DNA from: Longimicrobiales bacterium
GTDB lineage: Bacteria; Gemmatimonadota; Gemmatimonadetes; Longimicrobiales; Gaopeijiaceae
Direction: 5' to 3'
Length of the DNA stretch: 64,000 nt
Assembly: GCA_965198065.1 (NCBI GenBank)
Contig: CBDAON010000004.1
Coordinates: forward strand, 896,001 to 960,000
Shown: positions 9,965 to 36,245 of the stretch, one piece after another
Layout: the number at the start of each line of letters is the position of its first letter
Position numbering within the stretch: position 1 is the first letter of the stretch
Translations under genes and position numbers: made by a program
The notes under the pieces: generated by a model
Told to the model about the DNA's origin: nothing
What the model saw: only the letters and a program-made list of their open reading frames with translations
The model's database searches: none

Positions 9965-11075
9965 CTATACGACATAGTCGCTCCATGCCTGCATGACTTC
10001 GCGCCGGCGCGCCAGCAGGTCCGATCTCATGTACGCGCCCTCGGTGCCGCGCACGACGTGAGCCAACACGGCTTCCGCCGTCTCGCGGTCCACGCCGGTT
10101 TCGGCCATCCAGACACGAATCGACGTTCGGAAACCGTGCAGCGTCGTCCCGGTGACACCGGCCAGCTGGAGCACCCGGAAAGTGGATTTCGAGGACAGCG
10201 CGCGGCCGGCCCGCGTCAGGAAGACGAACGGCGAATCGTCGGCAAGCTCGCTGGCGCGCCGCTGGACAGCGGCACGCGATGCTCCCGGCCGGCTTTCATT
10301 CTCGCCGGCGGGATCGTCCAAACCTTCGCCGCCGTGTCGATTTCGTCCCACGTCGCGGCGCGCGCTTCGCCGGAGCGCGCCGCCGTCAAGACGATCAGCT
10401 CGACGGCGAGCCGCGCGGATTCCGGGGCGTTGGCCGACCGAATGCGCCGGAGCGCGTCCAGAACCTCACCGTGCGGGAGCGCGCGATGGTGCGTCGTGCC
10501 GTTGCCGTTGACCTTCGGGAGCGCGGCCACTGCGCGGTCCACGGGATTCGTCGAGATGTAGCCTTGTCCGACGCACCAGCGAAATGCCGCGTGGAGCCGG
10601 TTCCGGGCTTTCCGCGCGGCGGCTGGCTTCACGTTCCATACCGGCCGGAGACACGCCAGCACGTCGCCCGACGTGATCCGGTCCACCGGCTTGTCCCGGA
10701 TCGGCGTGGCGTACAGCCTGAACGTCGAGCGCCATTCCCCGAGGAGCGGCGAGCCGGCTTTCCACGATTCGGCGTGTAGCCGGATCGTCTCTTCGGCGGC
10801 TTCGCGAAACGTCGGGACGCCGCCGCCGCGCGGGTCCACACCCTGGCCGATGGCCCGCGCGTTCTCAATGGCCTTGTGCCGGGCTTCCGCCAACGAGACT
10901 TCGGGAAACCGGCCGAGCCCGGTCGTCGTCAGCCGCCCCGCGACGCGCAACCGTTGCCTCCATGTGCGCGAGAGCCGGCCGCTCTTCATCCTGTGAACGC
11001 GCAAGCTCAGGCCGCGCGAGCCGCGTCCGTCGCCGTAAACGCCGGGCTTGCTCACCGTCCGAACGAAGGCACCGC
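9965..11075 (-). pseudogene. P4-like tyrosine integrase, frameshifted, start missing
   Basis: Arm-binding N-terminus (PGVYGDG..GLSLRV..GLGRFPEVSLAEAR), TAARSGE and MKAGREHRVPLS; HGFRTS, LAH and AYMRSDL lie in a second frame after ~10255. Confidence 0.9.
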
Positions 11076-11188
11076 CGACACCGAGCTCCAGGTCGAGCAG
11101 GTCGTGCTCCGCATCCACCCGGCACCGGAGGCGCCGCACGGCGCGACCGCCGATAATATACTTAAGACTATTTAACCAACTCTGATAC

Positions 11189-11220
11189 CCTTATTACACC
11201 CCTCTTTCTGAACGGGAATC
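11189..11220 (-). repeat. Dispersed 32-bp motif, copy 2
   Basis: Revcomp GATTCCCGTTCAGAAAGAGGGGTGTAATAAGG, followed by an AT-rich tract. Lies between alpA and the integrase. Confidence 0.7.
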
Positions 11221-11339
11221 CAGGGGACCGTAGCGGAGGTTCGCGGAGGAGGCGAAGGAGCGAACCTTGCGGGAGGGCGGGTTGTTGATGGCCCCTGTCC
11301 TCTCGCATTGCGAACTATTCAGATAGTTATCGTCTCAGA

Positions 11340-20300: not shown

Positions 20301-22751
20301 CTCGAGGTCGAAATCATCGCATACAAAGCTCAGCTTCTGGACATTATCGGCGGGTTGTCCGTCGACCAGAACATCTCGCTTGAGATAGGTTCGTCCTTTG
20401 AGTGCCTTTGGGGTGACCAATCCAAGTAACTTCCACTTGCCACCGGCCTGTAGATGCTTGGCCGCGCCCACCGCATCCGAGCGTATTTTCCGAGGGTCGA
20501 GCCCTTCAGGCCGGGTCACGACTCGACTGCCGAGACTACGCAGCAGCGGCTCAATCTGCCCGATGCGCTCCTTGCTGAGCTTGAGCAGCGTACGCCACTT
20601 TGCGTTGCGACTCGCGACCACCTCTTGGAGCGTTGCGAGCAACCACTCAGCCTGTCCACCTTGGAGAGCGCGCCGTTGCTCCTCGATGTTCCTGAGATCG
20701 TCGGCTAGATGGTTCCGCTCGTCGGTCGGTAAAGCGCGAATCGGCGAGAAGGCTGGGTGCGGTCGGAGCGCGTCCACTTGCTCGCTACTGCGCGTTCGTG
20801 CTGTAGCCTCTTTTGAGACGATGCCTCCGAAATCTGCCGGAGCAGTGAGAGTGGCACTGCTCGGGATCTGGAGTGTCGAGGCCGCGACATCCTCGTCCGA
20901 ATACCGCCTGCGAATCTCCAGCCATCTGGCTGCCTCGGCATTCGAGATCGTCGGATGATTCTTCGCATCCCGTGCCAACCGGAGCCACCCAAAGATCTCG
21001 CGCTCGTCGGCTACCCTGGCCGCGATCTTCGAGGCCGTGCCTTCGTATGCGCCATCAAGCAGCGGATGTGACAGCGTCTCGTATTCCCGCAGGCTTCGGA
21101 TCTCCGAGTCGATCCCGGCGAGACGCCTTCGTGCCACGTCGAGCTCACGATCGATCTCTGCGATCCTGTCATCATATGTGCCCGGCGAGTATGAAGCTTG
21201 CCGGTTTGTGATTCCCTGCACGGCCGTGTTGAGCTCCGCGAATGCGTCTCCGCCGTGCCCAAGCAAGCTGACGCACAAGGGCTGGATTTCATTAGGGAGC
21301 ATGCGCTTGAGAACCTGGAGGGCGCGCCCCGTTTCCGCCGTGATGAGTACTCGCTTCCCCGTGGCGAGCAGGTGGCACATGAGGTTCGCGATGGTGTGGC
21401 TCTTGCCGGTGCCGGGTGGACCTTGAACCAGCACTCCCTGATCGCGGTCGATCGCATTGACGATACACCGCTGCTCGCGGTTGGCTGGCAACGGGAAGTA
21501 AATCTCTGACGGTGACAGCGTGCTCCCACTATGCGTTCCATCGTGACCATCGTACCCCGAAGGCTTCCCACCTCCATCTCCCCAGTCGTCATCAGTAAGC
21601 TCGCCCCAGCCGCGGGGCACTTCGCCTGCTTCGTCCTCAAGGTTCTGGATCAGTTTCTCGTAGATACGGACCATGCCAGTCTGGAGGCGCTTGCGAAGGA
21701 TCAGTGCAGGCGCAAAGCTTACGACTGGGTCATTTCCAGTTGACGGCTTGGCGCTGAGTCCCTCGGACCAGACCATGTCGGGGCTTAGTGCCCCTGTCCA
21801 GGTCTTGAGCGGAGCATGGATGAGCGACTTGTCCCAGATCGCGTCACCCACCTCCTCAAGCTGCGCTTCGACCGCGTCATAGTATGATCGATCAGGTCGG
21901 AGTTCGGCCTCGAGCATGTCGTCTTCGACGCGCAGGTTCGCCCCCTCACTGGGGGCGCCTACGCGAATGACACCCCTGCCTGGGTCAAAGGTCAACTCGA
22001 CCTGCCCGACCACCGCGTGGCGGCGAATCGGGATCGACTTATTGCCGCTCTTAGCTTGCCAGTCCATCAGGCCCAGCCCGAGGACGACCTCGACGATCTC
22101 GCTCTGCTTTTGCAACTGCGAATAGAGCCTGAAGAGCTTGGCATAGAGATCCTGCACCGCCTTACGACGGCGATCTTCGGCCGCCCAGGCTTCCCACTTC
22201 GGCCGGAAGGCCCGATAGGCCCCGACGACTTCGGGGTAGTCCTCCAGTGGTAGCTCGACGAGTGGCGGTGTCTCGCCCTCCTCCAGATCGAGTTCCGTAT
22301 CTTCCTCGAGGATGTTCGGGCGCAGTGGCGTAATATTCGAAGTCGCCCTGAGGAGGGCCTCTGCGTCGACCCATTTCGCGATCATGTCGGGTGGCTCTGG
22401 CGGCCTCTCAAACTCCTGCTTGCGGACCTCGAGCCAAGGCTCTTCTAGATCGTAGTCGTCGGTCCAGGCGCCACTGTGGCAGTCCGCGGCTTGCGGCATC
22501 TCGTCGAACCAGAGCACGGAATCGTACTTGGCTACATCGCGAACGGTCGTACTGCGAAGACCAACGAACTCTTTTAAGTACCGCGCGAGTCGCAGCGAGG
22601 GACTCTCGATTCGGTTACTGTTCGTGCTCAAGCTACCCTTCCGTAGACCTGGTGGTGATGGATCTCTCCTCTCCGCTCTAGGCTCGTGAGTCGGCTGCGG
22701 CGCTCCTCTTGTGGATCTTGCTGATCTGATGACGGGTGACTCATGCTTCAA
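17334..22751 (-). CDS. Large SF1 (Upf1/Dna2-like) helicase with C-terminal Vsr-like PD-(D/E)XK nuclease and DUF3320-like tail; probable defence protein
   Basis: VQGPPGTGKSHT, DLVIVDEASQ, VGDDQQ, LREHFRC, FQGDERN and RFNVAVSRA. Nuclease FESKFE..YRIDLVV..LAVECDGDKWH..QRDLERAGW. True start may be near 22630. Confidence 0.9.
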   Translation of the reverse strand: MKHESPVIRSARSTRGAPQPTHEPRAERRDPSPPGLRKGSLSTNSNRIESPSLRLARYLKEFVGLRSTTVRDVAKYDSVLWFDEMPQAADCHSGAWTDDYDLEEPWLEVRKQEFERPPEPPDMIAKWVDAEALLRATSNITPLRPNILEEDTELDLEEGETPPLVELPLEDYPEVVGAYRAFRPKWEAWAAEDRRRKAVQDLYAKLFRLYSQLQKQSEIVEVVLGLGLMDWQAKSGNKSIPIRRHAVVGQVELTFDPGRGVIRVGAPSEGANLRVEDDMLEAELRPDRSYYDAVEAQLEEVGDAIWDKSLIHAPLKTWTGALSPDMVWSEGLSAKPSTGNDPVVSFAPALILRKRLQTGMVRIYEKLIQNLEDEAGEVPRGWGELTDDDWGDGGGKPSGYDGHDGTHSGSTLSPSEIYFPLPANREQRCIVNAIDRDQGVLVQGPPGTGKSHTIANLMCHLLATGKRVLITAETGRALQVLKRMLPNEIQPLCVSLLGHGGDAFAELNTAVQGITNRQASYSPGTYDDRIAEIDRELDVARRRLAGIDSEIRSLREYETLSHPLLDGAYEGTASKIAARVADEREIFGWLRLARDAKNHPTISNAEAARWLEIRRRYSDEDVAASTLQIPSSATLTAPADFGGIVSKEATARTRSSEQVDALRPHPAFSPIRALPTDERNHLADDLRNIEEQRRALQGGQAEWLLATLQEVVASRNAKWRTLLKLSKERIGQIEPLLRSLGSRVVTRPEGLDPRKIRSDAVGAAKHLQAGGKWKLLGLVTPKALKGRTYLKRDVLVDGQPADNVQKLSFVCDDFDLEFALADLVSLWKDVGVTEISADRRFCLPDLKPHVSALEDALEYGDACTQAAQNMSRKSPPVPTPNWLDREAQRWVDLIVGAGIDEELDEAERQVVACGQPLARLRGLHDVHAVVDELLDAIAARDVTAYSQCHEHVVVIERTREAQSERARIEAAIRLAAPSLAEEIESSLNEPVWDDRLSHWEDAWRWAWADGWLKKRSDFDYQQELWRRRHEAEVRKSGLVAEAASLRAWKDFFKRLSPRERNALKGWREAVRAMGKGTGKSAKIARLRREARNYMDECRKAIPIWIMPRYLVAEMIDPSPGLYDLVIVDEASQLGIESLFLFYISKKIIVVGDDQQINPAGVGIPDADVAALQQHFLEGVPHKVALYPQSSVYANAKIRFNQNIVLREHFRCMPEIIQFSNDLCYASNGVPLDPLRAYTANRLQPLVRRHVPDGYRRGSTNSAQNAQNPPEAEAIVEQICACIDDPRYVGRTMGVISLQGEAQAKLIENKLLQALDPEVIVERRLICGDAYAFQGDERNVIFLSLVAAPGEHRIGVLANEAARQRFNVAVSRAEDQLWLFHTAELDLLSDKCMRHALLSYMLNPGRKPTDPDEQRFESKFERDVYQRITERGFHVRTQVCVGDPVNHRYRIDLVVEGMQGRLAVECDGDKWHGPDRYEQDMARQRDLERAGWHFARIQGSDFYRDCEKAMEPVWAELDRLGIRPGGIDDSAAAPPPPKSRGSQRRTEADLDEPSDGQPASPELVEVVPTVPRPFDEASPTPTHGSDPKPDARELVVEPQEEPEPTSYPENRPLPTNHDPVTPVPNRVAPYVAFEGPAGPDPRHSTPAQVAEGLCRIIDTEGPMLGKRAYNLYLRGIGIARMGRPLKRALNGALQHAIRQGRVAKEDEFGTGGLVNSIVRIKGTPATVLRERGPRTFEEIPPSELQLMARKLSQDEGFESGSGDHVRAVLDSFGLKRLTAQRRLRFPDVPGARNRNVDDILDDGKPQ

Positions 22752-23129
22752 TCATTCCGGGATGTCTTGGCCATACCTTTGTGAAATTAGTGTTCCCCGC
22801 CTTCCCGGTTCCGCTCCACATCCGAATCACTATAGCGCGAAGGCGTGGAGAGCGCATTTGAGGGTAAGGCGCCAGCCGCGCGCCTATTCGTGGTGCGTTA
22901 CCGTTGTCGAGCGCCACTGGGAGCGCGGCGTATCGGCGGACCGATCCGGCCTCCTGGCCCCGGCTCATCGGCCAGGTAAGCGGCCGCGGTGTACACCATC
23001 AAGTCGGCGACGGACGCTGGGTACCTGCCTTTGCCTTCCGCTAGGGGATTGATGGCGCGGGTCCCTCCGTGTCCATAGATCCCGCCAGGAAAGGCTGGGG
23101 CCAGCGCGGCGAGCGGCGACCAAGTGGGC

Positions 23130-23280
23130 GACGGACCTCGACGGCCTGTTGGCCCAGCGGGCGATCTGGTTGAGGTTGCCGCCGATGCGCGCGACTTGGC
23201 GGGTGCGCTCGCGCTCCACCGCGGCCGGCGGCGAGGGCGGTGCGGCGATCAGCCATCACCGCGCGCCGCCACGGGGGAAA
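23130..23280 (-). pseudogene. MobC relaxosome accessory protein remnant
   Basis: ERERTRQVARIGGNLNQIARWAN signature. Confidence 0.8.
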
Positions 23281-23393
23281 GCCCCCTGCCCGCAAACTCC
23301 GCCGCAACGCGAGTCTCCAGGGGTTCGAAGGGGAGCGGAGCCACCCCTCGCCAGCCCCTGCCGGGGACCCGCGAAGCGTGGCCCCAAAGGGTA

Positions 23394-23430
23394 AGCTGGC
23401 TCATGACTTCTAACGGGTCATGAGCCAGCT
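23394..23430. repeat. Perfect 14-bp inverted repeat, candidate oriT element
   Basis: AGCTGGCTCATGAC-N9-GTCATGAGCCAGCT upstream of mobC. No U-tract, so not a terminator. Confidence 0.6.
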
Positions 23431-23432
23431 CC

Positions 23433-23552
23433 TCAACGGATCGGTCTGGCCTCCGGGTCTCGACGTTCGCCGGCGAAATGCGCGGCCCAGTCGCTCATGA
23501 GCCGGCGCCGCCGCTCGAACAGATCCGTGTGGCGATAGGCCGCCTCGGCAGA
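23433..23552 (-). pseudogene. Tyrosine integrase C-terminal remnant
   Basis: AEAAYRHTDLFERRRRLMSDWAAHFAGER, the catalytic Tyr region. Confidence 0.8.
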
Positions 23553-23687
23553 GTACCGGTGGCGTGATTCACGTAGTCCTTCCAACAACAGTGAGGCCCC
23601 GTGACCGGACAGGTCTCTCCCGGTTGGGTATATACAGACGGCCATTCGCTTGATCACTGAGCTGAAGAGGCTAGAGGAGGACTCAAC

Positions 23688-24569: not shown

Positions 24570-24614
24570 TTGGCCCGGGGGGATTCGAACCACCACCGCC
24601 GGTTCCAAAGACCG
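24570..24614 (-). repeat. Duplicated 3' half of tRNA-Gln (att site)
   Basis: 45 bp matching 25538-25582 with one mismatch in the T-stem. Confidence 0.92.
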
Positions 24615-24874
24615 AACGGAGCTTTTCCTCCTAGTTCCTGTAAGTACGCGGGAGTACTCCTGCCAACGAGTTCTCCGACCAGTCAGTGCGTAGGAGTGTC
24701 GCTGTGTTCCCGCAAACGCCGATACCCGGGGGGCAATCCAGGGGTCTGCGGGTCTAGCAGGATTTGACTCACCGAAGCCCCCCAACGCGTAACGCCATCG
24801 GGTCCCATTCGGGAGATGTTCTCCGGCGCATTGGACGCCCGCCCTCCGTGACCGGCTGAAGTGCCATGTCGGCC

Positions 24875-25042
24875 TCAGCGTTCGAGCGGGCGGATCTTAC
24901 CCGGTATCATCCTGCTAACCGAAGATCGAGATACACCCAAGGCGGCGGCTATTTCGCCTTGTGGCGTGCCGAGCTTGATGAGCAGTAAAACGAGGAGCTT
25001 CTTGATACTCTCCACATCGCGTCCTATTGCATCGTCATCCAT
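24875..25042 (-). CDS. 55-aa helix-turn-helix protein
   Basis: MDDDAIGRDVESIKKLLVLLLIKLGTPQGEIAAALGVSRSSVSRMIPGKIRPLER, hand-translated and below the ORF-track cutoff. Confidence 0.65.
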   Translation of the reverse strand: MDDDAIGRDVESIKKLLVLLLIKLGTPQGEIAAALGVSRSSVSRMIPGKIRPLER

Positions 25043-25243
25043 ACCCGTGCATTTCCCATTCTGAATGGTTCAAGAACTTCCGGATGTGCTTGCCCTGGAA
25101 TCTAATGGCAATCTGGGCAACCAATTGGGGCTCGCCTTCGCTTCGCTCGCTCGCCCTCCGCGTCGGCGGTCTGCCGCCATCACGTCGCTCGCTTGACGGC
25201 ATGAAAGCGGTGCTTGGCTGCGCGGTGATGCCACGAGCGCCGC

Positions 25244-25510
25244 TTGGTCGGCATTCCGGACTTCACCATTCACGACCTCAGGCACCATTTCGCTGTGACC
25301 ATGGCCCGGGTGGGCCTGCCGCTGCACCTGCTCCAGAAGCAGCTCGGCCACCGGCACATCGACGTCTCCATGAAATACGCCGCCCACCACCCGGCCTACG
25401 GCGATGTGGCCGCCTACTTCACGGCCGTGGGCGAGAAGCTGACGGGCAACGCCAGGGGGCGATCCAGGGGTCACCCCCCTGCGGAGGAGCCTGCGGCCCG
25501 TGTTGGGTGA
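25244..25510 (+). pseudogene. Tyrosine integrase C-terminal remnant
   Basis: HDLRHHFA...LQKQLGHRHIDVSMKY. Ends just before the tRNA 3' end. Confidence 0.88.
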
Positions 25511-25537
25511 TCACCTAAGTCTTTACCCTATAGGCTA

Positions 25538-25608
25538 TTGGCCCGGGTGGATTCGAACCACCACCGCCGGTTCCAAAGACCGGTGTCCTGCCATTAGACG
25601 ACGGGCCA
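25538..25608 (-). tRNA. tRNA-Gln(TTG)
   Basis: TGGCCCG acceptor stem; anticodon arm CCGGT-CTTTGGA-ACCGG; T arm GGTGG-TTCGAAT-CCACC. CCA not encoded. Confidence 0.96.
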
Positions 25609-25693
25609 ATGAGTCAACAAGTAAGCCAAATCACCTTCGGTTTTCCATATCCAAAAGTCCGGATCGGACACATTTTGGACACATCCGCCGGCC

Positions 25694-25864
25694 TCACAAT
25701 CCACTGGCGACCTCCTTCAATTCCTCGAGGCTCAGCTCCTCGACCAGAGCCAGGAGGTCGGCGTCGAGAAGGTGGGAGTATCCCATGGTGGCAGCAAGGT
25801 CCGAGTGCCCCATGGCCTTCTGCACTAGAGTGGTGCTCTTTCCAGCGGACAGCCACGTCGTTGC
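25694..25864 (-). pseudogene. Tyrosine recombinase C-terminal remnant
   Basis: Hand translation ATTWLSAGKSTTLVQKAMGHSDLAATMGYSHL (GH...Y box). Ends ~85 bp before the tRNA 5' end. Confidence 0.8.
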
Positions 25865-25934
25865 TGGAGAAACAGAGCCAGCTCACGGAGACACCCTCGG
25901 TGCCCCCTCGAGTGGGAACGCAGCGACCGGGTCC

Positions 25935-26598
25935 TCAGCCCTCGGCCAGTCGATTCATGTCCTCGTTTTCGAGGACGCGCTCGGGATAGCCTTCTAGGCA
26001 GACGCGGATCATCGCTCTCCCCATGTTCGTCGTCGTTGTGACGTGCCGCGGAAAGAAGCGACGGAGCAAAGGGAAGAAGGGCCCCATCACCGCATAGGAA
26101 GCGTTGTAGAGGGGCGTCTTGGATCGGATGCCAGGTGCCGGGCGGACGAACCCCGGGCGAAACGCGTACGCGTCAATCGGCATCTCGAAGAGCCGGTTCT
26201 CCGTCCGCCCCTTAACCCGCGCCCACATTCTCCGACCGCGCTCCGTCGAGTCCGTTCCCTGCCCCGAGACGTAGCAAAAAGTCAGCGGCGAACCGACGCT
26301 CGCCAGCGTCTCCGCGACGGCGATCGTTCCGTCGTGGGTGATTCGCGCATAGACCGCCTCGTCCAGCCCGACGGACGAGACGCCGGTGCAGAAGAAGCAG
26401 CTGCGGTAGCCGGCCAGCTCCGACAACACGTCGCTCAAGTCGAAGGGGTCGGGCTTCACGATCTGCCGGAGCTTCCGATGGTCGACGGGGGTTCGCCTCC
26501 GGCCGATCGAAAGCACCGCCTCGACCCGGGGCTCCGCGAGGCATTCTTCAGGACACCCGAGCCGATCATCCCCGTGGCTCCGAACAGGACGACCCTCA
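25935..26598 (-). pseudogene. NAD(P)-binding epimerase/SDR-like protein, frameshifted at the N-terminus
   Basis: VVLFGATGMIGSGVL is out of frame with EECLAEPRV...FCYVSGQGTDSTERGRRMWARVKG. Confidence 0.75.
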
Positions 26599-26698
26599 GC
26601 ACCGGCCGCCAGCGCGGCAGCGCAGACGCCGTCGACGTCGGCCACGTAGAGGTGATGGATCCTTCATCCCCCGCCGTCCACGAGCTCCCGCAGCTCCG

Positions 26699-27454
26699 TC
26701 AGCGCCTCCGGCCAGCGGGGGCCGGCGAGCCGTCGTTGTGACCCGCCCCCTCGACCCACAGGGCGAGCTTCGGCCCCGTGGCCGCCTCGAACAACCGCCG
26801 CCCGTGCGCGATCGGAACCACCTCATCCCGGGTGCCGTGAATCACCAGCACCGAACACTGGATGTCCTCGAGACGGCTCAGGTTCGGGAAGCGGTCGAAG
26901 GGGAGCAGCCGTACGCGGGTCATCACGCGGAACGCGCTCGTGAACGCGCTCTGGAGCACGAGCCCCGCCGGCCGATGGCCGGCCGCGAGATCCACCGCCG
27001 GACCCGAGCCGACGGACGTGCCATAGAGGATGAGCCGGCTCTCCGGAACGCCCAGCTCACCGACGGCGTACCCGTACGCCGCTTCCGCGTCCTCCAGCGC
27101 CTTCCGGGCGGTCGGCGGTCCGGGGCTGCTCTCGCCGTACCCACGATAGTCGAAGCCAATCACGCCGAATCCCTGGTCTCGAAGAGCTCGGAGGGTCGGG
27201 AGCGTAAGCCCCAAGTCCTCGGCGTTCCCGTGGAGGATGTACAGGATCGTGTATCGTGCCGCAGCGCTTGGGAGGTGTAGGAGCGCGATCCACTCGGTCC
27301 GCCCGACCGGCACGCGCCTAACGGGGAGCGTTCCATTCGCGTACGACGGCGGCGGCGGTTGGAAGATGATCCGGTCCGCCACGGCAACCGCAAGCAAGGT
27401 GACGAGGCCGTATGCGAGGAGCCCCGCCACGGCGAGCCGGGCGAGGGTCGTCAT
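26699..27454 (-). CDS. Alpha/beta hydrolase (ABHD17-like), C-terminus probably frameshifted
   Basis: HGNAEDLG, DYRGYGES, GTSVG nucleophile elbow, IHGTRDEVV and GAGHND. Confidence 0.85.
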   Translation of the reverse strand: MTTLARLAVAGLLAYGLVTLLAVAVADRIIFQPPPPSYANGTLPVRRVPVGRTEWIALLHLPSAAARYTILYILHGNAEDLGLTLPTLRALRDQGFGVIGFDYRGYGESSPGPPTARKALEDAEAAYGYAVGELGVPESRLILYGTSVGSGPAVDLAAGHRPAGLVLQSAFTSAFRVMTRVRLLPFDRFPNLSRLEDIQCSVLVIHGTRDEVVPIAHGRRLFEAATGPKLALWVEGAGHNDGSPAPAGRRR

Positions 27455-27960
27455 GCCCCGACAGCTCTCATTTCTCGCACGAACGTCGAGCCCCACTCGA
27501 TGGGCAGGTCCAGATCGTCAGGGCCTGCCCCGCGAAGCTGACCAGATGGGGACGGGTCAGGTGAAAGGACTCGCTGGCTCCGGCCCCAGGTTCCGTCGAT
27601 CGGAACGTTCTCCCAGACGTACCCCTCCTTGTCGTGATCGGCCCCACAGTCGATGGAGCCGAGGCGCCGGCCCGTCCCGTTCGCGACCCCTAGGAGCTCA
27701 GGAGCCAGGAGGGGTGTTCCTCCCGGCTCCCCCCGTTCCAGCGGACCTCCATGGTGACCCGCTCAGCGCGGACGAACATCGCCCGGTCACGTTCTTCCAT
27801 CACCGCATCGTTCACCGGGTTCTCCTCGCGAGGCATAGGTGCTGCGACGGTCGGGTTTGCTCCCTCGCCTGCCGTCGACTAGCGTGAAACGGTTCACCAG
27901 AACGCCTTCCCGTGCATGCTACTGAGCACCGAAGGGGAATCTCCAGCCCGTTGAGGACTG

Positions 27961-29586
27961 ATGGTGCCCTCAAGCTCCCGGCCCCCTGGGAAAGGGCGCC
28001 GACGAGAGAAGCGGCGAGCAGCCGAGGCGGCCCCTGCGCGGGCGGCACCTCCAAGTCGATACTTCTGGGTTCCGCTGTCCTTCATCCTCGCCCTCGTCCC
28101 TATCGCGTTCGTGGAGCGGGTTCGGGACCATCCCGTCCTGGTGTGGTCGGTCTTCGCCTCAGTGGGTACGCTCCTGGCTTGGCAGGCATGGCTCTTCCTC
28201 GGGATGAAGAAGGAGCGAACCACCCCAGCCTTTTCGATTGTCCTGCGACCACAGCATTACCTTCAGGGATGCCTCCAGCTCTCCGTGTTCGCATACTGGG
28301 GGTGGTACTGGAGGCCGGTCTACGAGCACGCGTGGCTCCTGCTCGCGCAGATCCTCTTCGCCTACGCCTTCGCGATTCTCCTCGCGTGGTCCCGCCGTCA
28401 GCCGTTCGCCCTGGGGTTCGGGGTCTTCCCGATCGTGCTCAGCACGAACCTCTTCCTCTGGTTCCATGACGACTGGTTCTACCTGCAGTTCCTGATGATC
28501 GCGGTAGGGTTCCTGGGCAAGGAGTTCGTGCGCTGGACGCGGGAGGGCCGGCGGGTGCACATCTTCAACCCCTCCGCCTTTTCGTTGGGGCTCTTCTCGG
28601 TGGTATTGATCGCCATGAACGCGACGGATCTCACCTGGGGCCAGGACATCGCGTCCACGCTGAGCATGGCGCCGCGCATCTACACGTTTCTCTTCGTGAT
28701 CGGCCTGATCGCGATGTACAACTTCTCGATCACTCTCGTCTCCGGCCTCGCCGCCGTCGTGCTCTTCGGTTGGAGCGCAGGGTACTTCACGGTGACCGGA
28801 GTTCCTTACTTCATCGATTCAGAGATCCCCAGCGCGGTCTTCCTGGGGCTCTTTCTGCTGGTGACGGACCCCTCCACCTCGCCACGCACCCCCCTCGGAA
28901 AGGCGATCTTTGGGCTCCTGTACGGGGTCAGCGTCTTCGCTCTTTTCTCCGGGCTGGACGTGATCGGTGCACCAAGGTTCTACGACAAGCTGCTGGCCGT
29001 TCCTCTCCTGAACCTGAGCGTCCAACAGATCGACCGCCTCGCACGCACGATCCAGGGCACGGCGTGGTGGGGCCGCATGCGTCCCGCGTGGCCTCCCGCC
29101 CGGCTGAACCTGGCCCATATGGCCCTCTGGATCCCGTTCTTCATCCTGATGACCGCGACCGGACGAACGGACGGCCGCCACACGGGAGACAGCGTGCCCT
29201 TCTGGAAGCAGGCCTGTGAGGAGGGCCGGCGCAAGGCGTGCAACCGGTTGCTTGAAGTCGAGTACACCTACTGCGCCGACAACTCCGGCTGGGCCTGCAA
29301 CGAGGTGGGGCGGCATCTCGCGGAAGGGCGGATCGCGGGTCCTGATCCGGAGCTGTCGCGGGAGTATTTCATCCGCGCCTGCGAGGCCCGCTTCCAACCT
29401 GGTTGCCTGAACCTCCTGGAGCCGGAAAGCCTCGCCGTCGCCCCCCCTCGGACCCTGGACTTGAGGCTGCTGGTGCGTGAAGGCAGAGCCACTCTCCTGG
29501 ACATGCCGGAGCCGGAGCTCTACGCGCGGGCCTGCGATCATCAGTGGAACTTCGCGTGCGAAGCCCTAGCACTCCGGTCGTTCTGA
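27961..29586 (+). CDS. RnfD/NqrB-like polytopic membrane protein with C-terminal Cys-rich Sel1-like repeats
   Basis: Many TM segments; HIFNPSAF and LVTDPSTSPRT motifs; four C-x7-C pairs at the C-terminus. Confidence 0.7.
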   Translation: MVPSSSRPPGKGRRREKRRAAEAAPARAAPPSRYFWVPLSFILALVPIAFVERVRDHPVLVWSVFASVGTLLAWQAWLFLGMKKERTTPAFSIVLRPQHYLQGCLQLSVFAYWGWYWRPVYEHAWLLLAQILFAYAFAILLAWSRRQPFALGFGVFPIVLSTNLFLWFHDDWFYLQFLMIAVGFLGKEFVRWTREGRRVHIFNPSAFSLGLFSVVLIAMNATDLTWGQDIASTLSMAPRIYTFLFVIGLIAMYNFSITLVSGLAAVVLFGWSAGYFTVTGVPYFIDSEIPSAVFLGLFLLVTDPSTSPRTPLGKAIFGLLYGVSVFALFSGLDVIGAPRFYDKLLAVPLLNLSVQQIDRLARTIQGTAWWGRMRPAWPPARLNLAHMALWIPFFILMTATGRTDGRHTGDSVPFWKQACEEGRRKACNRLLEVEYTYCADNSGWACNEVGRHLAEGRIAGPDPELSREYFIRACEARFQPGCLNLLEPESLAVAPPRTLDLRLLVREGRATLLDMPEPELYARACDHQWNFACEALALRSF

Positions 29587-29600
29587 CCCATGACAGAGCG

Positions 29601-30536
29601 ATGATCGAGGCGCGCTCCTCCGCTCGCCCGGCCTGGCTGGGCGGAGGTGCGATCTTCCTGGCGGTGCTGACGCTGGTGGGCGCCGTTTGGACGTTCCGGC
29701 CCACCTCAGACGAGCCGCCCCTGCCTCCGATGGCGGGCACCAGTGATCTTTCGCGGTTCCGCGCCGACGCATGGTTCCTGCCGGCCGAGGAGCTCCTGGG
29801 GTTCGTGGAGATCCCCGCCGGCCCGTTCCTCATGGGGAGCGACCCGGGTCTCGATCCCCTCGCTTTCGACAACGAGCATTGGCTGGACACCGGGGGCCGA
29901 GCGACGGTGGAGCTTCCAACCCTCTACGTCGCCCGGTACGAGGTGACCGTAGCGCAGTTCCGTGCGTTCGTGGAAGCGACCGGGGACCGCGCCGACCCGG
30001 CGGCCGTCACCGGACTCGCGGACCATCCGGTGGTCGCCGTCTCGTGGACTGACGCCTTGAGCTACGCGGGTTGGCTCGAGGGGCAGCTGCGGGAGTCTCG
30101 GGAAACACCCGCCGAGCTGGCCCGTCTCCTCGGGGAGGGCTGGCGGGTCGCCCTTCCCACGGAGGCCGAATGGGAGAAGGCGGCTCGGGGCACCGACGGA
30201 CGGATCTACCCCTGGGGAGACGAGCCCAGGCAGGACCGAGCCAATTTCATGAGCGGAGGCACCCAGCCGGTTGGAAGTTTTCCCTGTCCGGAATGCCCCC
30301 ACGGCCTCGCCGACATGGCGGGGAATGTTTGGGAGTGGACCCGTACTCCCTTCCAGGCTGCTCCCTACGATGGGGGAGCGAGTCCCACCGATCTGGGGGA
30401 GGATGCCATCTGGGTCATGCGGGGCGGGTCGTTCACCGATCCCGAGCGGAACGTGCGCGCGGCCATCCGCGGAGGTGCCGATCCCGGCGCCCGGCGCCCA
30501 TTCATCGGTTTCCGGCTAGTAATCAGCCGACCCTAA
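29601..30536 (+). CDS. Membrane-anchored FGE-sulfatase (SUMF1-like) domain protein
   Basis: IPAGPFLMGS, RYEVTVAQF, LPTEAEWEKAARG, GLADMAGNVWEW, RGGSF and GFRL; N-terminal TM helix. Confidence 0.9.
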   Translation: MIEARSSARPAWLGGGAIFLAVLTLVGAVWTFRPTSDEPPLPPMAGTSDLSRFRADAWFLPAEELLGFVEIPAGPFLMGSDPGLDPLAFDNEHWLDTGGRATVELPTLYVARYEVTVAQFRAFVEATGDRADPAAVTGLADHPVVAVSWTDALSYAGWLEGQLRESRETPAELARLLGEGWRVALPTEAEWEKAARGTDGRIYPWGDEPRQDRANFMSGGTQPVGSFPCPECPHGLADMAGNVWEWTRTPFQAAPYDGGASPTDLGEDAIWVMRGGSFTDPERNVRAAIRGGADPGARRPFIGFRLVISRP

Positions 30537-30548
30537 CCCCCGTCCCCC

Positions 30549-30589
30549 AAAAAAGCGCCGGGCCCCGGGTATGAATCCCGGAGCCCGGC
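30549..30589 (-). terminator. Intrinsic terminator between convergent genes
   Basis: GC-rich stem-loop followed by T6 on the minus strand. Confidence 0.7.
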
Positions 30590-30609
30590 CCGCTGAAGGT
30601 GTGAGACGC

Positions 30610-32715
30610 TCAGGGAAGCGTCAGAGCGAAATAACCGGCCGGCAAGCCCTGCTGGGCGCTGGACGAGTTCACTACGATGTACTGCTTGCCTTCGTGCATG
30701 AACGACATCATCCCGTACGAGCCAGGCGACGGGAGCTCGGTCGTCGCGACGACCTCACCCGTCCGCTTGTCACGGGCGTTGAGCAATGGCGGACCGGCGC
30801 CGCCCCCCCGGCCGCCGCCGCCCGTCTGGAGCAGGAGGTCGCCCATGACCATCTGGATGCCGCCCCCTGAAGACCCCGTATTGGGAACATCCACTCCCTG
30901 CAGGAGGGGGTGGTTCTCGTAGCTGGCGGGTAGGCCGCCCATGGGCTGGTCCCAGATCTTTGTGCCCGTGTTCATGTCGATGGCAACGAGCCCACCGTAG
31001 GGCGTGTAGATCGGCAGACCGTCTATGTTATCTAAGCCGGGGTCGTTGCCGCCGGGCATCCAGGGAACCGGCGTTCTGCCCGTAGTGGGCGTGGTGGTCG
31101 AGCCGGGCGCAAAATCGGTGAAGTCCACGTCCACCCCCCCCGTGGGCTCCACTTGGCCCGAGGTTCCGCACCTCCGGGAGTGCGAGGCGTACATGATTCC
31201 GGTCGTGGGATCCGCGACTGCCGGCGTGGGAATGTTGAGGCCCCCCATGCCGCAGTTGATCATGGCTACGTATTCGTTCTGGTGATCGAAGGGGAGCGGC
31301 GGCGCGTAGGTCCCACCTATGTTGTAGTTCTCCAGGATCTCCAGCGCCCGTGCCCTTAGCTCCGGAGTGTAGTTGATGATGTACTTGTCAGTCAGACCGT
31401 CGAGGACAATCGAATCCAGCGGCGACGGAAGGGTCGGATAGGGCTGGGTCGGCGACGTCCAGTCGCCCGGGACCTGCGTCTGAGGAACCGGTCGCTCCTC
31501 GATGGGCCAGATCGGCTCCCCGGTCTCCCGGTTGAACGCGAAGACGAGCCCCTGCTTCGTGTTCTGGATGAGCGCCGGGATCTCCTGCCCGTCCACCGTG
31601 AGGTCCAGCAGGATCGGCGCGGCCGGAAGGTCGTAGTTCCAGCGGTCGCTGCGGTGGATCTGGAAGTGCCACCTACGCTCCCCTGTCTGGACATCCAGCG
31701 CGACGACGCTCCCGCCAAAGAGGTTGGTCCCCGGGCGAAAGCCCGTGAAGGACTGGATCGTCGAGGCGTTTGTGACCAAGTATACGAGCCCGAGCTCCGG
31801 ATCGGCGGACGCGGGAGCCCACTGGCCCATGTTCCCCGTCCACTGCCAGGCGTCGCTCTCCCAGGTGTCGTGGCCGAACTCACCGGGACGCGGCAGGACG
31901 TGGAACTTCCAAAGATGCTCTCCGGTCCTGGCGTCGTAACCCGAGAGGTCGCCCGGGACGTTCTCGATCCGGGTTTGGCCGTAAGCAGGCTGGTGGGCCG
32001 TCTGCGCCACGATGACCCCGTTCACGACGATCGGGGGCGAGGAGCTCGTGACCATCCCCAGCTCCCTGGGGATCCCATAGTCCGGGTCGTAGGTCCCCCC
32101 CGCGGCCGTGTAGTCCAGCCACGGCCCCCAATCCCCGATGAGGTCCGGGAGCAGGTCGACGACCCCAGTCTGCGGGAAGGTATCGATCCCTACGGGCGAG
32201 CCCCAGCCCTCCACGGGCAGCCCCGTCTTGGCATCCAGGGCCCACAGGAAGAACGCAGGCGACGTGATATAGATTACGCCTCGTCCGTCTATTTCCCCGT
32301 AAGCGACGCCCTTTCCGTGCGCCGCCCTGGGCGACCGCTGGTACCTCGTGGTGTTGGGCTCACGGAAGGTCCAGAGCGTCTCTCCCGTCGCCGGATCGAT
32401 CGCAACCACCTGGCGGCGGCTGCCCGACACGGTGTAGAGCATCCCGTCTACGTAGATCGGGGTTCCCCGGGCCGAGTAGGTGGGTGACGGCCCCATGTTG
32501 TCGCCCCGCCAGGTCCAGGCCACCTCCAGGTCGCCAAAGTTGGAGGCGTTGATCTGGGTCAGGGCCACATTGGACCGGGTGGCGCCAGCATCGCCGATGA
32601 AGTAACGCCACTCTCCGTTCTCCAGGCCCGTGAGCTGCGCGGATCCGGGCATCGCGACGCCGAGCGCGATCGCGAGAGCAAGGACGCCTGAAATGCTCCG
32701 ATGTCGAGTTGTCAT
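30610..32715 (-). CDS. Secreted PQQ-dependent (glucose/quinate-type) dehydrogenase
   Basis: Signal peptide; QINASNFGDLEVAWTW; repeated A.D..TG...W propeller motifs; WNYDLPAAPIL. Confidence 0.9.
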   Translation of the reverse strand: MTTRHRSISGVLALAIALGVAMPGSAQLTGLENGEWRYFIGDAGATRSNVALTQINASNFGDLEVAWTWRGDNMGPSPTYSARGTPIYVDGMLYTVSGSRRQVVAIDPATGETLWTFREPNTTRYQRSPRAAHGKGVAYGEIDGRGVIYITSPAFFLWALDAKTGLPVEGWGSPVGIDTFPQTGVVDLLPDLIGDWGPWLDYTAAGGTYDPDYGIPRELGMVTSSSPPIVVNGVIVAQTAHQPAYGQTRIENVPGDLSGYDARTGEHLWKFHVLPRPGEFGHDTWESDAWQWTGNMGQWAPASADPELGLVYLVTNASTIQSFTGFRPGTNLFGGSVVALDVQTGERRWHFQIHRSDRWNYDLPAAPILLDLTVDGQEIPALIQNTKQGLVFAFNRETGEPIWPIEERPVPQTQVPGDWTSPTQPYPTLPSPLDSIVLDGLTDKYIINYTPELRARALEILENYNIGGTYAPPLPFDHQNEYVAMINCGMGGLNIPTPAVADPTTGIMYASHSRRCGTSGQVEPTGGVDVDFTDFAPGSTTTPTTGRTPVPWMPGGNDPGLDNIDGLPIYTPYGGLVAIDMNTGTKIWDQPMGGLPASYENHPLLQGVDVPNTGSSGGGIQMVMGDLLLQTGGGGRGGGAGPPLLNARDKRTGEVVATTELPSPGSYGMMSFMHEGKQYIVVNSSSAQQGLPAGYFALTLP

Positions 32716-32943
32716 TCTTCCTCCCGCAGAAAACGACGTGGGAAACGCCCACCTGAACTGCGCCTGGGATCGTCACGCCCCAGAGCCGGGCTTCCAATGG
32801 CCAGGTCGCGATACCGGTGGCTAGTATCGATGACAAGTTACGTGGGACACCAATATCCGGAAAGGGTGAGAATACTCGACGAGCCTTGGCATCACACAGC
32901 CCCCCCCGAAAGCATCCGAAACGGACCGCACACCTCCAAGGTG

Positions 32944-32983
32944 AAAAAACGAGAAAGGCCCCGTCTCCATTGAGGAAACGGGG
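32944..32983 (-). terminator. Intrinsic terminator after the tRNA 5'-half remnant
   Basis: CCCCGTTTCC-TCAAT-GGAGACGGGG, then a T-rich tail. Confidence 0.7.
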
Positions 32984-33016
32984 TCTCGATGAGTCTTGGG
33001 AAACGCCCGGTTCTGA

Positions 33017-33053
33017 TCCAAAGACCGGTGTCCTGCCACTAGACGACGGGCCA
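33017..33053 (-). repeat. Duplicated 5' half of tRNA-Gln (pseudo-tRNA or att site)
   Basis: TGGCCCGTCGTCTAGTGGCAGGACACCGGTCTTTGGA, 36/37 identical to the 5' half of the intact tRNA, ending at the anticodon loop. Confidence 0.9.
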
Positions 33054-33103
33054 TCGAGCGGACCAGGGGCGCACGGCCGGCGCCTGGAGGCCGTGCCCCG
33101 CCG

Positions 33104-34087
33104 CTACATGATCGGCCGGCTCACCACCGCACGCCCGATCATGTTCGCGTCCGTTCCGAACCAGAGCATTCCCGTCCGCTCGTCGAACATCATGTTGCGG
33201 ATGTTCCCGCTCACCTCGAGGTTCGAGAAGATTTGCTCCGCGGCCGGATCGAAGCCGATCAGACGCTTCTCGGGCCCGGTGAGCGAGTACCAGATCCGCC
33301 CCTCCCCGTCGGCGTTTACTGCGTACGGGCGGGAGTCGCCGCCGCCTGGCGCGGCCCATTCCGTAGACTCCCCCGTGTTCGGATCGAGCTGGCCGAGATA
33401 CCCTAGAGCGTAGTCCGTATACCAGATCATCCCGTCGGGCGTGACCGCTATGCGACGGTTCCGAGTCTCCGCCGTCCCAACCGGGTACCTGGTCACGTCC
33501 ATCGTTTCCGGATCGATCCTGGCGATCAGGTTCGTCGCGAAGAGGTTGGCCCACGGGCTCCCCTCGGAATCCATCACGATCCCGTAGGGATTGGCCTGCC
33601 GGGAGTACGGGTTGTTGATGATCTCGATCTGGCCAGTCGCCATGTTGAGACGGCCGATCCGACTCGCGCCCTGCGCGGTGAACCAGATGTTCCCCGCGCC
33701 GTCGAACGTCGCCGTGTGGGGGTCACGCACGGCCGGGTCGGGCATCATGAAGATCTCGACCTCGCCCGTAGCCGGATCCAGCTTCCCGATCCGGCCGTTC
33801 CGGTTCCCCATGTACCACACGAACCCCTCCCCGTCCACGATCAGGCTGTGGGGGTTCGTTCCGCCCTCGATCTCGAAGCGTCGGAACTGCTCCGTCTCCG
33901 GGTCGAGGCGCGCGATGTAGTTCCCCTGCTGACCCACGAACCAGACATGGCCGTTCGGGGCCACGTACGGATCCCGCGTTCGCCCGCCCCACTCCACGGA
34001 CCACTCCTGCAGGTCGATGGTTTGCGCGGGCAGCGGGGAAGTGAGCCCAACGAGCCCGGTCAGGACCAGAAGAATCAGTTGTCTCAT
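33104..34087 (-). CDS. Vgb (virginiamycin B lyase)-like beta-propeller protein, secreted
   Basis: Signal peptide MRQLILLVL...; repeats of DG..W......IG.LDP.TG. Confidence 0.85.
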   Translation of the reverse strand: MRQLILLVLTGLVGLTSPLPAQTIDLQEWSVEWGGRTRDPYVAPNGHVWFVGQQGNYIARLDPETEQFRRFEIEGGTNPHSLIVDGEGFVWYMGNRNGRIGKLDPATGEVEIFMMPDPAVRDPHTATFDGAGNIWFTAQGASRIGRLNMATGQIEIINNPYSRQANPYGIVMDSEGSPWANLFATNLIARIDPETMDVTRYPVGTAETRNRRIAVTPDGMIWYTDYALGYLGQLDPNTGESTEWAAPGGGDSRPYAVNADGEGRIWYSLTGPEKRLIGFDPAAEQIFSNLEVSGNIRNMMFDERTGMLWFGTDANMIGRAVVSRPIM

Positions 34088-34249
34088 GATGTGTTCTCGG
34101 GGTTCCAAGGTCAGTGCGACCTTCTGAGCATGGCTCTCGATTCCAAGACAATCGGGGTGGCTTTTCGCTGTCCCATGATGCCTTCGCGCTCGGCCAGGGC
34201 GCAAGCACGGGAGCTCTCGCCGCCGCCCGAGGTCACCGTGTTTGGGCAG

Positions 34250-35233
34250 CTACCGCCCCTCTGTGACGGACGTCCGGGTTCGGAGGACCCGCACGTCACC
34301 GACGGCCGAAGCCCCGCGCTCGAGCGCGTCCTGGTCGTCGAACACGCCGAACACGGCCGCCCCGCTCCCGCAAAGGAGGGCCGGCCCCCCACCCGCCCCG
34401 AGGAGGGCCGCCTTGATCAGCGCGAGCTCCGGCCGGAGTGGAAAGAGCGCCTCCTCGAAGTCGTTCTGAGCTTCGTCCCCAACACCGGCCCATTCGTCGC
34501 TCGGGCCCGGGCCCTCCCTGTAGCCGAACCTCGGGCGAGCCGGAGCTTCGCGCTCTCGGGCCCTGCGAGAGGCCAGGACCCCGTAGGCCCAGTCCGTTGA
34601 AATCGGAGGCTCGGGAACGGCGAGGAGCACGTCCCGAGGAGGGAGGGCCGGCAGCTCGAGTACGCGTTCCCCTCGACCCCACGCCACGGCACGGGCGGCC
34701 CCCGACACAAAGAAGGGCACGTCGGAGCCGATCCCGGCTCCGAGACGCATGAGATCCGCTTGTGGGAGAGCTTCTTCCAGGAGGGCATTCAGCCCTCGAA
34801 GGACAGCCGCCGCGTCGGAGGATCCGCCACCCAGGCCGGCTCCGTGAGGAATCCGCTTCGAGAGGTGCACCCGGATCCCAGGGAGCCGCGTCCCACGCGT
34901 CGCCAGGACCCGCCGAAAGCCCTCGGCGGCACGAACCGCAAGGTTCGCCTCGGGGGGACCTAGCGCTCCCTCGGCCACGCCCTCCAGCTCCAGCTGATCG
35001 GAGTCTCGGTCGAGGAAATCCAGCCTCAGGGTGTCCGCGAGCTCGACCGTATGAAGGACGGTCTCGATCCGGTGGTAGCCGTCCTCCCCCCGCTCCAGGA
35101 CCCGGAGGAGGAGATTCACCTTCGCGGGCGCATCCCCCGTCCAGGAGTTCGCCACCCATCCCAAGTGGCGAGTCACCGCCCCCAGCGCCCGCTCGCCCGC
35201 CGAGTCATCGGCCCCGCGGCTCCCTCGTGCCAC
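34250..35233 (-). CDS. ispE: 4-(cytidine 5'-diphospho)-2-C-methyl-D-erythritol kinase
   Basis: APAKVNLLL, KRIPHGAGLGGGSSDAA and IGSDVPFF. Start may be ~35156. Confidence 0.95.
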   Translation of the reverse strand: MARGSRGADDSAGERALGAVTRHLGWVANSWTGDAPAKVNLLLRVLERGEDGYHRIETVLHTVELADTLRLDFLDRDSDQLELEGVAEGALGPPEANLAVRAAEGFRRVLATRGTRLPGIRVHLSKRIPHGAGLGGGSSDAAAVLRGLNALLEEALPQADLMRLGAGIGSDVPFFVSGAARAVAWGRGERVLELPALPPRDVLLAVPEPPISTDWAYGVLASRRAREREAPARPRFGYREGPGPSDEWAGVGDEAQNDFEEALFPLRPELALIKAALLGAGGGPALLCGSGAAVFGVFDDQDALERGASAVGDVRVLRTRTSVTEGR

Positions 35234-36245
35234 TCAGCCCGATCCCCTCCGTCCGGCGCAGATCCGAAACGCTCAGCCCCACGCGCGCCGCGTACCACAG
35301 ACCCAGGAGCGTGACGGGGAGGAAGCTGCCCAGGTGGTATCCGAACGCGAACGCGAGCGTGGGCCCTTCGGCGACCCCGTAGACCTCGTGGAGCGCGATC
35401 ACCGCCGCTGCCTGGAACGTCCCCACGTACCCCGGGGCGGCCGGAACCGCCACGCCCAACGTGATGATCGCCTGGACGAAGAGAGCGGTCACGTATCCCT
35501 GCTCGATCCCGAAGGCCCAAAGGCCCACGAGATACGAGAGGCCGTTCCATGCCCAGAAGGCGAAGGACCAGATCACGCTCAAGGAGAGAAGGCGCGGGCT
35601 TCGTAGCGCACCCAGGCCCCGAAGGAACGCCTCCAGGAACTCGGTGATCAGGTGACCCGCCCGTCCGGGCAGATGCGGAGCGACGCGCCGAGCCAGGCTC
35701 ACCAGCGGATTCGGGAGAAGGAGCGGGACGAGGAGGACCGACACTGTCAGGACGAGCACCACGGCCACGCCGGGAAGAAGCGACTCGAGGGAACGCCCTC
35801 CGACCGTGACACTGCCGGGGAAGCTGGGGTGGAGGACGGCGACGAGGAGCAGGCCGAATACCGCAAGGAGATCCATGAAGCGCTCCACGACGATGGAACC
35901 GAACGTGGCGCTCACGGTCACGGATTCGAGCCTGGCAAACGACCAGGCGCGGGCGAACTCCCCCATTCGCGCCGGGAGGACGTTGTTCAGGCCGAACCCG
36001 ATGTTCACCGCGGCAAATCTGGAGTGGAGACGGGTGCCGGGCCGCACCGGGTGAAGAAAGACCCCCCAGCGGAGCGCCCGGATCAGGAATCCCGAGGTCG
36101 TGATCGCGACGGCGAGGAGTAGGAGCCAGAGGTTCGCCCCACGGACCTCGGCCCACACCTGACGCGGATCCACGTCGCGGAGGACCCACCAGATGAGGAG
36201 CGCGCTGACCGCGATCCCGAGAACGGCCTTCCAGCCCCGCCTCAC
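35205..36245 (-). CDS. Lysylphosphatidylglycerol synthase TM / flippase-like membrane protein
   Basis: RALRW, NNVLPARMGEFAR, VVERFMD and PAAPGYVGTF. Confidence 0.88.
   Translation of the reverse strand: MRRGWKAVLGIAVSALLIWWVLRDVDPRQVWAEVRGANLWLLLLAVAITTSGFLIRALRWGVFLHPVRPGTRLHSRFAAVNIGFGLNNVLPARMGEFARAWSFARLESVTVSATFGSIVVERFMDLLAVFGLLLVAVLHPSFPGSVTVGGRSLESLLPGVAVVLVLTVSVLLVPLLLPNPLVSLARRVAPHLPGRAGHLITEFLEAFLRGLGALRSPRLLSLSVIWSFAFWAWNGLSYLVGLWAFGIEQGYVTALFVQAIITLGVAVPAAPGYVGTFQAAAVIALHEVYGVAEGPTLAFAFGYHLGSFLPVTLLGLWYAARVGLSVSDLRRTEGIGLSGTREPRGR

Follow-up and report, generated by a model that had tools for sequence, protein, structure and literature searches.

A tRNA-Gln gene in a Longimicrobiales bacterium very probably rebuilt from both sides by unrelated tyrosine-integrase elements

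Introduction

Among 3919 islands catalogued by Islander, 3760 carry 3′ fragments of the target tRNA gene and 159 carry 5′ fragments, with 125 tandems (Hudson, Lau, Williams 2015, PMC4383910). In Klebsiella, strains 616 and A708 are reported to have islands at both ends of one tRNA gene, arg2A, and a distinct integrase subclade to target the 5′ end (bioRxiv 10.1101/2020.11.02.365908). The pTN3-like archaeal integrases use the 5′ half of a tRNA gene as attB, and expression of the restored gene then comes from a promoter of the element; such 5′-half targeting is described as seldom seen in bacteria (PMC8371274, citing Williams 2002). An anticodon-loop overlap flanked by stem symmetry is given as the classic tyrosine-integrase site in the same review. 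Here we describe a tRNA-Gln(TTG) gene in a 64,000-nucleotide (nt) stretch of a Longimicrobiales bacterium (assembly GCA_965198065.1, contig CBDAON010000004.1, positions 896,001 to 960,000; the whole stretch is called the window, and positions are those of the window unless another sequence is named). At this gene, unrelated tyrosine-integrase elements of opposite orientation very probably recombined at one shared anticodon loop; the working gene would then be wholly element-derived, with a predicted element-borne promoter.

The locus resembles the 5′-fragment islands of Islander in its upstream 5′ fragment on the same strand, its tyrosine integrase, and a crossover in the anticodon loop, but differs from Islander islands in that its integrase is a 56-codon remnant and its 3′ unit is shorter than 2 kb (both would fail the Islander filters), and in that both sides of the gene are occupied. 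As at arg2A, two islands share one tRNA gene, one per end; however, the Klebsiella 5′ site is described as the acceptor stem, D-stem, and D-loop, whereas here both sides meet in one 7-nt anticodon loop, so that no middle part of the gene need be host-derived. Likeness to the pTN3 type lies in the tRNA 5′ half as target and in a promoter that is, here by prediction, element-borne; the pTN3-type integrase gene, however, is split by integration and lends its own promoter, whereas the predicted promoter described below lies in the attachment arm. Unlike the split genes of pTN3 and SSV, integrase genes of the present family end before the arm repeats and the tRNA, and in the relatives L161 and L087 the whole gene lies at one end. 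The succession of tRNA, small element, 3′ fragment, large region, and host 3′ fragment is that of ordinary 3′-replacing tandem islands in Islander, except that the 3′ side here is decayed. The two-sided layout is rare but already described, with 5′-fragment islands and two-sided occupancy both in print, and more cases may be found in the supplements of the Klebsiella preprint or in the Islander listings. A narrow literature search on promoter replacement by islands returned nothing relevant.

The locus would be a clear case of mobile DNA supplying both halves, and probably the promoter, of a single-copy tRNA gene. If this is true, the inner end of a dead 5′ element becomes impossible to lose, which would explain why only the tRNA-proximal end persists in several genomes. 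A more useful product is the element family itself, with close 3′- and 5′-type members, a full-length 5′-type integrase (L161), and mapped sites, through which both the switch of orientation at a tRNA and the source of the promoter can be tested directly.

The tRNA-Gln Gene and Its Displaced Fragments

The intact gene and the pieces that match it are as follows:

25538–25608, minus strand: intact working tRNA-Gln(TTG), called by Rfam (65.4 bits) and ARAGORN
25572–25578, minus strand: anticodon loop, tRNA nt 31–37, from the Rfam structure; presumed crossover of both elements
33017–33053, minus strand: displaced 5′ fragment, tRNA nt 1–37, 36/37 identical, E 2.5e-12, one D-loop change
24570–24614, minus strand: proximal 3′ fragment, tRNA nt 27–71, 44/45 identical, E 4e-17, one T-stem change
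C4:863211–863251 (= L002:7211–7251), outside the window: distal 3′ fragment, tRNA nt 31–71, 100% identical, directly before prs

This is the sole Gln gene with a TTG anticodon among 50 tRNA genes called in the assembly (genome 87.6% complete). Searched against the genome with BLAST, it returned three end fragments (nt 1–37, 27–71, and 31–71); as a control for chance, 5 of 300 shuffled tRNAs had even one exact 18-mer in common with the genome. An earlier note, made from the letters of the window alone, had reported the two copies inside the window with one mismatch each and had them overlapping in the anticodon arm; BLAST confirmed both points, and the overlap spans nt 27–37. The two outer fragments (nt 1–37 and 31–71) overlap by exactly the 7-nt anticodon loop: the 5′ fragment, 7.4 kb upstream of the intact gene on the same strand, ends at nt 37, the last base of the loop, and the distal 3′ fragment, 57.3 kb beyond the proximal one, begins with its first base. 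The locus thus reads ispE, vgb-like gene, 5′ fragment, 7.4 kb, intact tRNA, 0.92 kb, 3′ fragment, 57.3 kb, 3′ fragment, prs.

At positions 15 and 61, all 21 of 21 intact copies from other genomes or contigs agree with the working gene, and both single mismatches are private to the fragments, where they read as decay after displacement. A comparison of D-loop and T-stem alleles, suggested earlier as a guide to ancestry, was therefore uninformative: alleles do not show an element origin for either half, and it is the breakpoints and flanks that do so. Contigs from other public runs cover 24756–25566, 25579–27866, and 33018–35500 at 0.3–2.4% differing letters, which excludes misassembly as the source of the pieces. 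None of the listed contigs spans the whole locus, and their breaks fall at the tRNA repeats. They also yielded no usable excision or empty-site joint, as the joints listed at 25608 have sides shorter than 30 nt and are metagenomic.

The Ancestral Site

Two genes lie upstream of the displaced 5′ fragment, as had been noticed before:

34250–35233, minus strand: ispE, upstream anchor of the ancestral ispE–tRNA-Gln–prs order
33104–34204, minus strand: vgb-like beta-propeller gene between ispE and the 5′ fragment, far under the Vgb family cut-offs, present there in G001 too

The empty site that the earlier note proposed to seek in relatives was found, with the order ispE–tRNA–prs. Among 28 relatives' loci (30 returned, minus this genome, G000, and the same-genus genome G001), 20 have ispE in the 1.5 kb flanking the tRNA match, and 7 have both ispE and prs there. 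With ispE at most 1.5 kb from the tRNA in so many of these loci, 25609–33016 is not core synteny, nor did relatives show two full tRNA-Gln genes. We infer that the remnant at 33017–33053 is the host's original front half and marks the ancestral 5′ position. This placement had been proposed from the window alone, and it is borne out by G246 and G046, where the displaced 5′ fragment is still preceded by a host-type promoter (scores of 12.0 and 10.4, respectively, on a matrix trained on 41 host tRNA upstream regions). On the other side, prs starts about 80–120 bp past the distal 3′ fragment, and the spacer after this fragment is homologous to the sequence that precedes prs in G001, a genome whose tRNA lies about 230 bp before the prs start. 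The host's original 3′ end is the C4:863211–863251 copy, and not the copy at 24570.

The 5′-Side Element and Its Relatives

The element between the displaced 5′ fragment and the intact gene has the following parts, its cargo genes being listed further below:

25609–33016: 5′-side element, 7.4 kb, integrase remnant plus cargo
25694–25864, minus strand: C-terminal 56 codons of the 5′-side tyrosine integrase, co-oriented with the tRNA; stops close the frame just upstream
25666–25686, minus strand: paired GTGTCC direct repeat, about 105 nt from the anticodon loop, common to 3′- and 5′-type relatives
32890–33016, minus strand: outer flank of the element (approximate left limit), homologous to the post-fragment flank in other genomes
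32959–32983, minus strand: terminator-like hairpin with a T-rich tail, immediately past the displaced fragment; a predicted block to host transcription running into the element

Tyrosine-recombinase C-termini had been seen to converge on the tRNA from both sides, and this was substantiated by a PF00589 match for 25244–25510 and by the relationship of 25694–25864 to the protein P0001. The 25694–25864 open reading frame (ORF) has no Pfam match at 1e-4 and weak NCBIfam tyrosine-recombinase matches (best E 7e-5); its product is 77% identical over 95% of its length to P0001, a PF00589 protein, and 66% identical to the full-length P0002. About 85 nt separate the end of the gene from the tRNA, and the paired GTGTCC repeat likely represents integrase arm-binding sites. 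Several features of a tDNA island with a displaced 5′ fragment are present, namely a same-strand upstream fragment, an end in the anticodon loop, absence in relatives, and an element-type tyrosine integrase. The 56-aa remnant falls short of an active island in the sense of Islander; because it has no PF00589 match at 1e-4, and because the outer paired arm repeat seen in relatives is missing from the outer flank in this genome, the element is placed among decayed remnants. No virion or conjugation genes were found among the five cargo ORFs here or 46 ORFs scanned from G160, L161, L087, G086, and G126, and the element is classed neither as a prophage nor as an integrative and conjugative element. 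Viral contigs held no close integrase, the two matches there being distant (27%).

Relatives of this element occur in other genomes. When fragments that stop at nt 37 were sought by exact pattern, eight sites in 6 of the 301 genomes of the same family matched, all followed by T, with 0 control matches. This count misses alleles such as those of G160 and G246, which were found through a P0002 search and have a 5′ fragment after ispE with a different base at nt 37, and the fragment is thus present in at least 8 of the 301. Ten 5′ fragments in these eight genomes stop at the same base, and ispE is upstream in seven of the eight, the two fragments of G170 sitting at contig ends. Six of nine copies of the flank that follows align at 49–70%, and in those six it forms a hairpin (−21.5 to −34.3 kcal/mol) and then becomes T-rich; five of these six alike flanks run on into a paired GTGTCC-type repeat, which the window copy lacks. 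G000 and G001 may share one insertion: their outer flanks are 58% alike, compared with 49–53% in three other genera, and the integrase tails of these two resemble each other most closely. In G001, G160, G246, G170, L098, and L161, the intact tRNA-Gln is immediately preceded by a related integrase or remnant in the same orientation, and in all of these and G000 the spacing from integrase end to paired repeat to tRNA is fixed. L161 carries the full-length 5′-type integrase at tRNA-Gln in a complete reading frame; with P0002, it supplies the full-length homologs that the earlier note had suggested seeking together with their attachment sites. Both element ends lie on one contig in G160, 22.5 kb apart. 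The cargo of 5′-type elements varies between genomes, and the named relatives of the integrase family belong to Gemmatimonadota.

Two genomes carry two 5′ fragments each, G086 (L072, L073) and G170 (L036, L042), with a scrap of the last integrase codons no more than about 50 nt before three of the four, which suggests stacked or repeated 5′ events there. No intact tRNA-Gln(TTG) was found in G086, and a PQQ-family gene lies between ispE and the fragment in that genome.

The 3′-Side Units

Downstream of the intact gene, two units are separated by the proximal 3′ fragment:

25244–25510, plus strand: C-terminal remnant of a second, different tyrosine integrase, PF00589 E 7.6e-10, pointing at the tRNA 3′ end
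24615–25537: 0.92-kb remnant of the proximal 3′-side element, bearing a 16-nt repeat close to either end (about 24729–24744 and 25455–25470)
1–24569: window part of the 57.3-kb distal 3′-side region, with insertion sequence (IS) pieces, a P4-like integrase piece, a DUF4011-like helicase, and an extra sucA

The 3′ end fragments lie downstream on the same strand, and the last one is followed by prs, as in tandem 3′-replacing islands; the distal fragment extends the 3′-side island region to about 58 kb. Restriction-modification genes are also present in the 57-kb region. A contig of about 5.17 kb in runs X22 and X24 follows the window over 24756–25566 before passing into other sequence, and X22 and X23 contain 24633–24753 in two variants; close strains likely carry a larger or stacked proximal 3′ unit.

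A separate decayed tandem array is seen in this genome at tRNA-Ser(TGA) (C4:706071–718110 of G000), where a remnant is 45% identical to the 3′-side integrase and two 3′ fragments (nt 32–88 and 28–85) accompany the gene.

Promoter of the Restored tRNA

The predicted promoter lies between the paired repeat and the gene:

25618–25647, minus strand: predicted element-borne tRNA promoter, TGGAAA, 17–18 nt, TTACTT/TACTTG, 9–10 nt before tRNA nt 1

The predicted −35 box lies inside a family-wide TGTGGAAAA-type motif, which we take to resemble a DnaA box. The motif is found in 11 of 14 3′-type relatives, several of them with it at the same 70 nt from the loop; since it is shared with the 3′ type, it is an attachment-arm feature first, and we infer that this arm motif serves as the −35 box. 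In six of the eight restored Gln genes, the matrix introduced above places a site 9–10 nt before the tRNA (scores 7.2–13.2), and in five of the eight this is the best site of 260 nt, although the restored-gene sequences are related and these counts overstate independence. Random positions score at least 7.2 in 1.0% of 3000 trials, and 3′-type loci (14 of 16 scorable) score at most 5.5. Empty sites show TTGA..-17/18-TA...T upstream of the tRNA. The best host-side candidate in this genome lies upstream of the vgb-like gene and scores 9.1.

Proposed Mechanism and Alternative Explanations

In the proposed course of events, a 5′-type attachment site would have carried tRNA nt 1–37 together with upstream DNA. 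Its integration would have left the host's front half behind, followed by the terminator-like hairpin, and would have put the element's own front half and promoter on the back half. A 3′-type attachment site would have carried nt 31–71 and downstream DNA, and 3′-replacing integration would have taken place at least twice, giving the 57-kb region and the 0.97-kb remnant in tandem and leaving the host's back half before prs. After events on both sides, in whichever order, the host halves would lie 66 kb apart, and the working gene would be element-derived on both sides of the loop. Both integrases would have decayed later, the inner end of the 5′ element being kept because the tRNA depends on it. 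Since both integrases are remnants, the elements are likely immobile and probably fixed. The earlier note had suggested that the working tRNA may be almost entirely element-derived, which the breakpoints and flanks support and the alleles do not show. Its proposal that 25609–33016 supplied a new 5′ half is upheld by the same breakpoint and flanks, the promoter it added being a prediction. The claim that another element supplied the 3′ half also stands, with the correction that the 24570 copy is an internal junction and that the host 3′ end is the C4 copy.

Several observations weigh against this reconstruction. The arrival of the five cargo genes with the element is putative; the interval of G001 equivalent to 25609–33016 is 598 bp, and the 5′ fragment of G126 has a divergent flank and no integrase trace. 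On the 3′ side, no integrase is assignable to the 57-kb region, which has two P4-like ones inside and none at its junction; an IS256 piece starts about 60 bp past the proximal 3′ fragment; and none of 75 candidates passed as a full-length relative of the 3′-side remnant. As for the promoter, in addition to the relatedness of the sequences compared, that of the window is the weakest of the six, its score of 7.2 being reached by the best site of 21.5% of random 260-nt stretches, and two of the eight restored genes (G170 and G126) have no predicted promoter. A generic sigma-70 scan placed 0 promoter sites on either side, and in 18 RNA-labelled runs 0.07 of words were shared, about the size of the tRNA.

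Other origins of the layout are much less probable. The outer fragments would rejoin into a whole gene, overlapping as they do by exactly the loop, and one composite element could have split the host tRNA through that short overlap while carrying a complete replacement tRNA inside. This is very improbable, because G001, G126, G160, and G246 have the 5′ element and no 3′ fragment in the fetched DNA (G001 showing this at the level of the genus), so that the two sides are separate events; moreover, the integrase remnants on the two sides are of different families and have separate end repeats, and the 3′ side varies among close strains while 25579–27866 is common to them. Duplication of the whole gene, with extra copies decayed to halves and the integrase pieces as bystanders, would agree with the single mismatch in each fragment of the window, but it is hardly credible and is in effect refuted by a breakpoint shared to the base by all ten 5′ fragments in the eight genomes, most of them running into one conserved non-tRNA flank. 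Misassembly or a strain chimera is just as implausible an origin of the repeats: although public contigs break at them and none listed crosses the locus, unique sequence next to the tRNA is present on both sides in contigs from three studies, and the 5′ layout recurs in G001.

For the promoter, the alternative is that the restored tRNA depends on a different one, such as a TTGCYA-17-CACCTT-type sequence within the final integrase codons; this would also account for the retention of that piece in remnants. The form TTG(C/T)NA-17-CAC(C/T)TT is present in all seven distinct 5′-Gln sequences compared and in 0 of 12 other family rows, decayed copies start a short way ahead of it, and it is found 16–32 nt before a 5′ fragment in G086 and G170. 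We nevertheless regard it as unlikely, as T is the first base of 31 of 34 trained host −10 boxes and C that of one, the site never scores above 8.5 and falls outside the top four in this genome and G001, and L098 lacks it. Neighbouring codons are conserved too, so shared ancestry suffices to explain its presence, and 6–7 nt of microhomology can account for one of the deletions.

Orientation and Phylogeny of the Integrase Family

Among 21 family genomes with a P0002 relative, the nearby tRNA is convergent with the integrase (3′-type) in 13 and co-oriented in 3, and no tRNA is nearby in 5. In an 18-row tree, from which long branches, duplicate loci, and any rows that were short or had no tRNA were excluded and which was midpoint-rooted (L061 and L062 fill under half of its columns), the three Gln 5′-type proteins form a clade (100/99) joined, at moderate support, to two 3′-type Leu integrases (82/97). 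The L087 integrase places elsewhere, and a single clade of the four 5′-type proteins was rejected (p-AU 6.6e-6). The 5′ orientation would have arisen at least twice, or been repeatedly lost; the midpoint root leaves the direction unproven. L087:1361–16521 is a second two-sided case, with a complete co-oriented integrase of the same family as the Gln 5′-type, tRNA-Cys(GCA), a 5′ fragment (nt 1–37) 9.3 kb upstream, and a 3′ fragment (nt 39–72) 5.8 kb downstream. L093, L095, and L189 are 5′-type by orientation only, and no 5′ fragment was found for the co-oriented tRNA-Leu(TAA) integrase of G004. More tentatively, and with rather less than even confidence, we propose that 3′-replacing elements may have flipped orientation at the symmetric anticodon loop more than once, and that in the tRNA-Gln lineage the pre-existing arm motif TGTGGAAAA, which lies 70 nt from the crossover, came to act as a −35 box, with a −10 box gained behind it; the family would then show how 5′-replacing islands arise.

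At L078:6921–10745 (G004:C15), tRNA-Leu(CAA) has a 5′ fragment 3.7 kb upstream, with no family integrase between them.

Other Features of the Region

The cargo of the 5′-side element and the further genes of the distal 3′-side region are listed here:

25935–26645: cargo ORF with no Pfam or NCBIfam match
26699–27496: cargo, alpha/beta hydrolase
27961–29586: cargo, NQR2/RnfD-like membrane protein
29544–30536: cargo, FGE-sulfatase-domain protein
30610–32715: cargo, PQQ dehydrogenase
10216–11139, minus strand: truncated P4-like integrase, adjoining one arm of a 56-nt imperfect inverted repeat (4152–4207, 11182–11237)
L003:12276–13613: second P4-like integrase of the 57-kb region
17334–22751, minus strand: 1805-aa helicase/nuclease, with below-cut-off similarity to the anti-phage ProA and DUF4011 Hhe models
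142–1839, plus strand: sucA-like gene, one of three copies in the genome, 47–50% identical to the other two
6623–9322, minus strand: 899-aa coiled-coil protein of no clear family

In four runs, contigs about 95% identical to the cargo at 27850–32800 are deeper than its flanks, which suggests close cargo copies in co-occurring organisms. A permuted tmRNA called by ARAGORN at 22986–23658 has no Rfam support and is likely false, a standard tmRNA being called at C4:64817. Elsewhere in this genome, C4:1710874–1713237 packs 18 tRNA genes into 2.4 kb, 17 of them on one strand, including the only tRNA-Gln(CTG).

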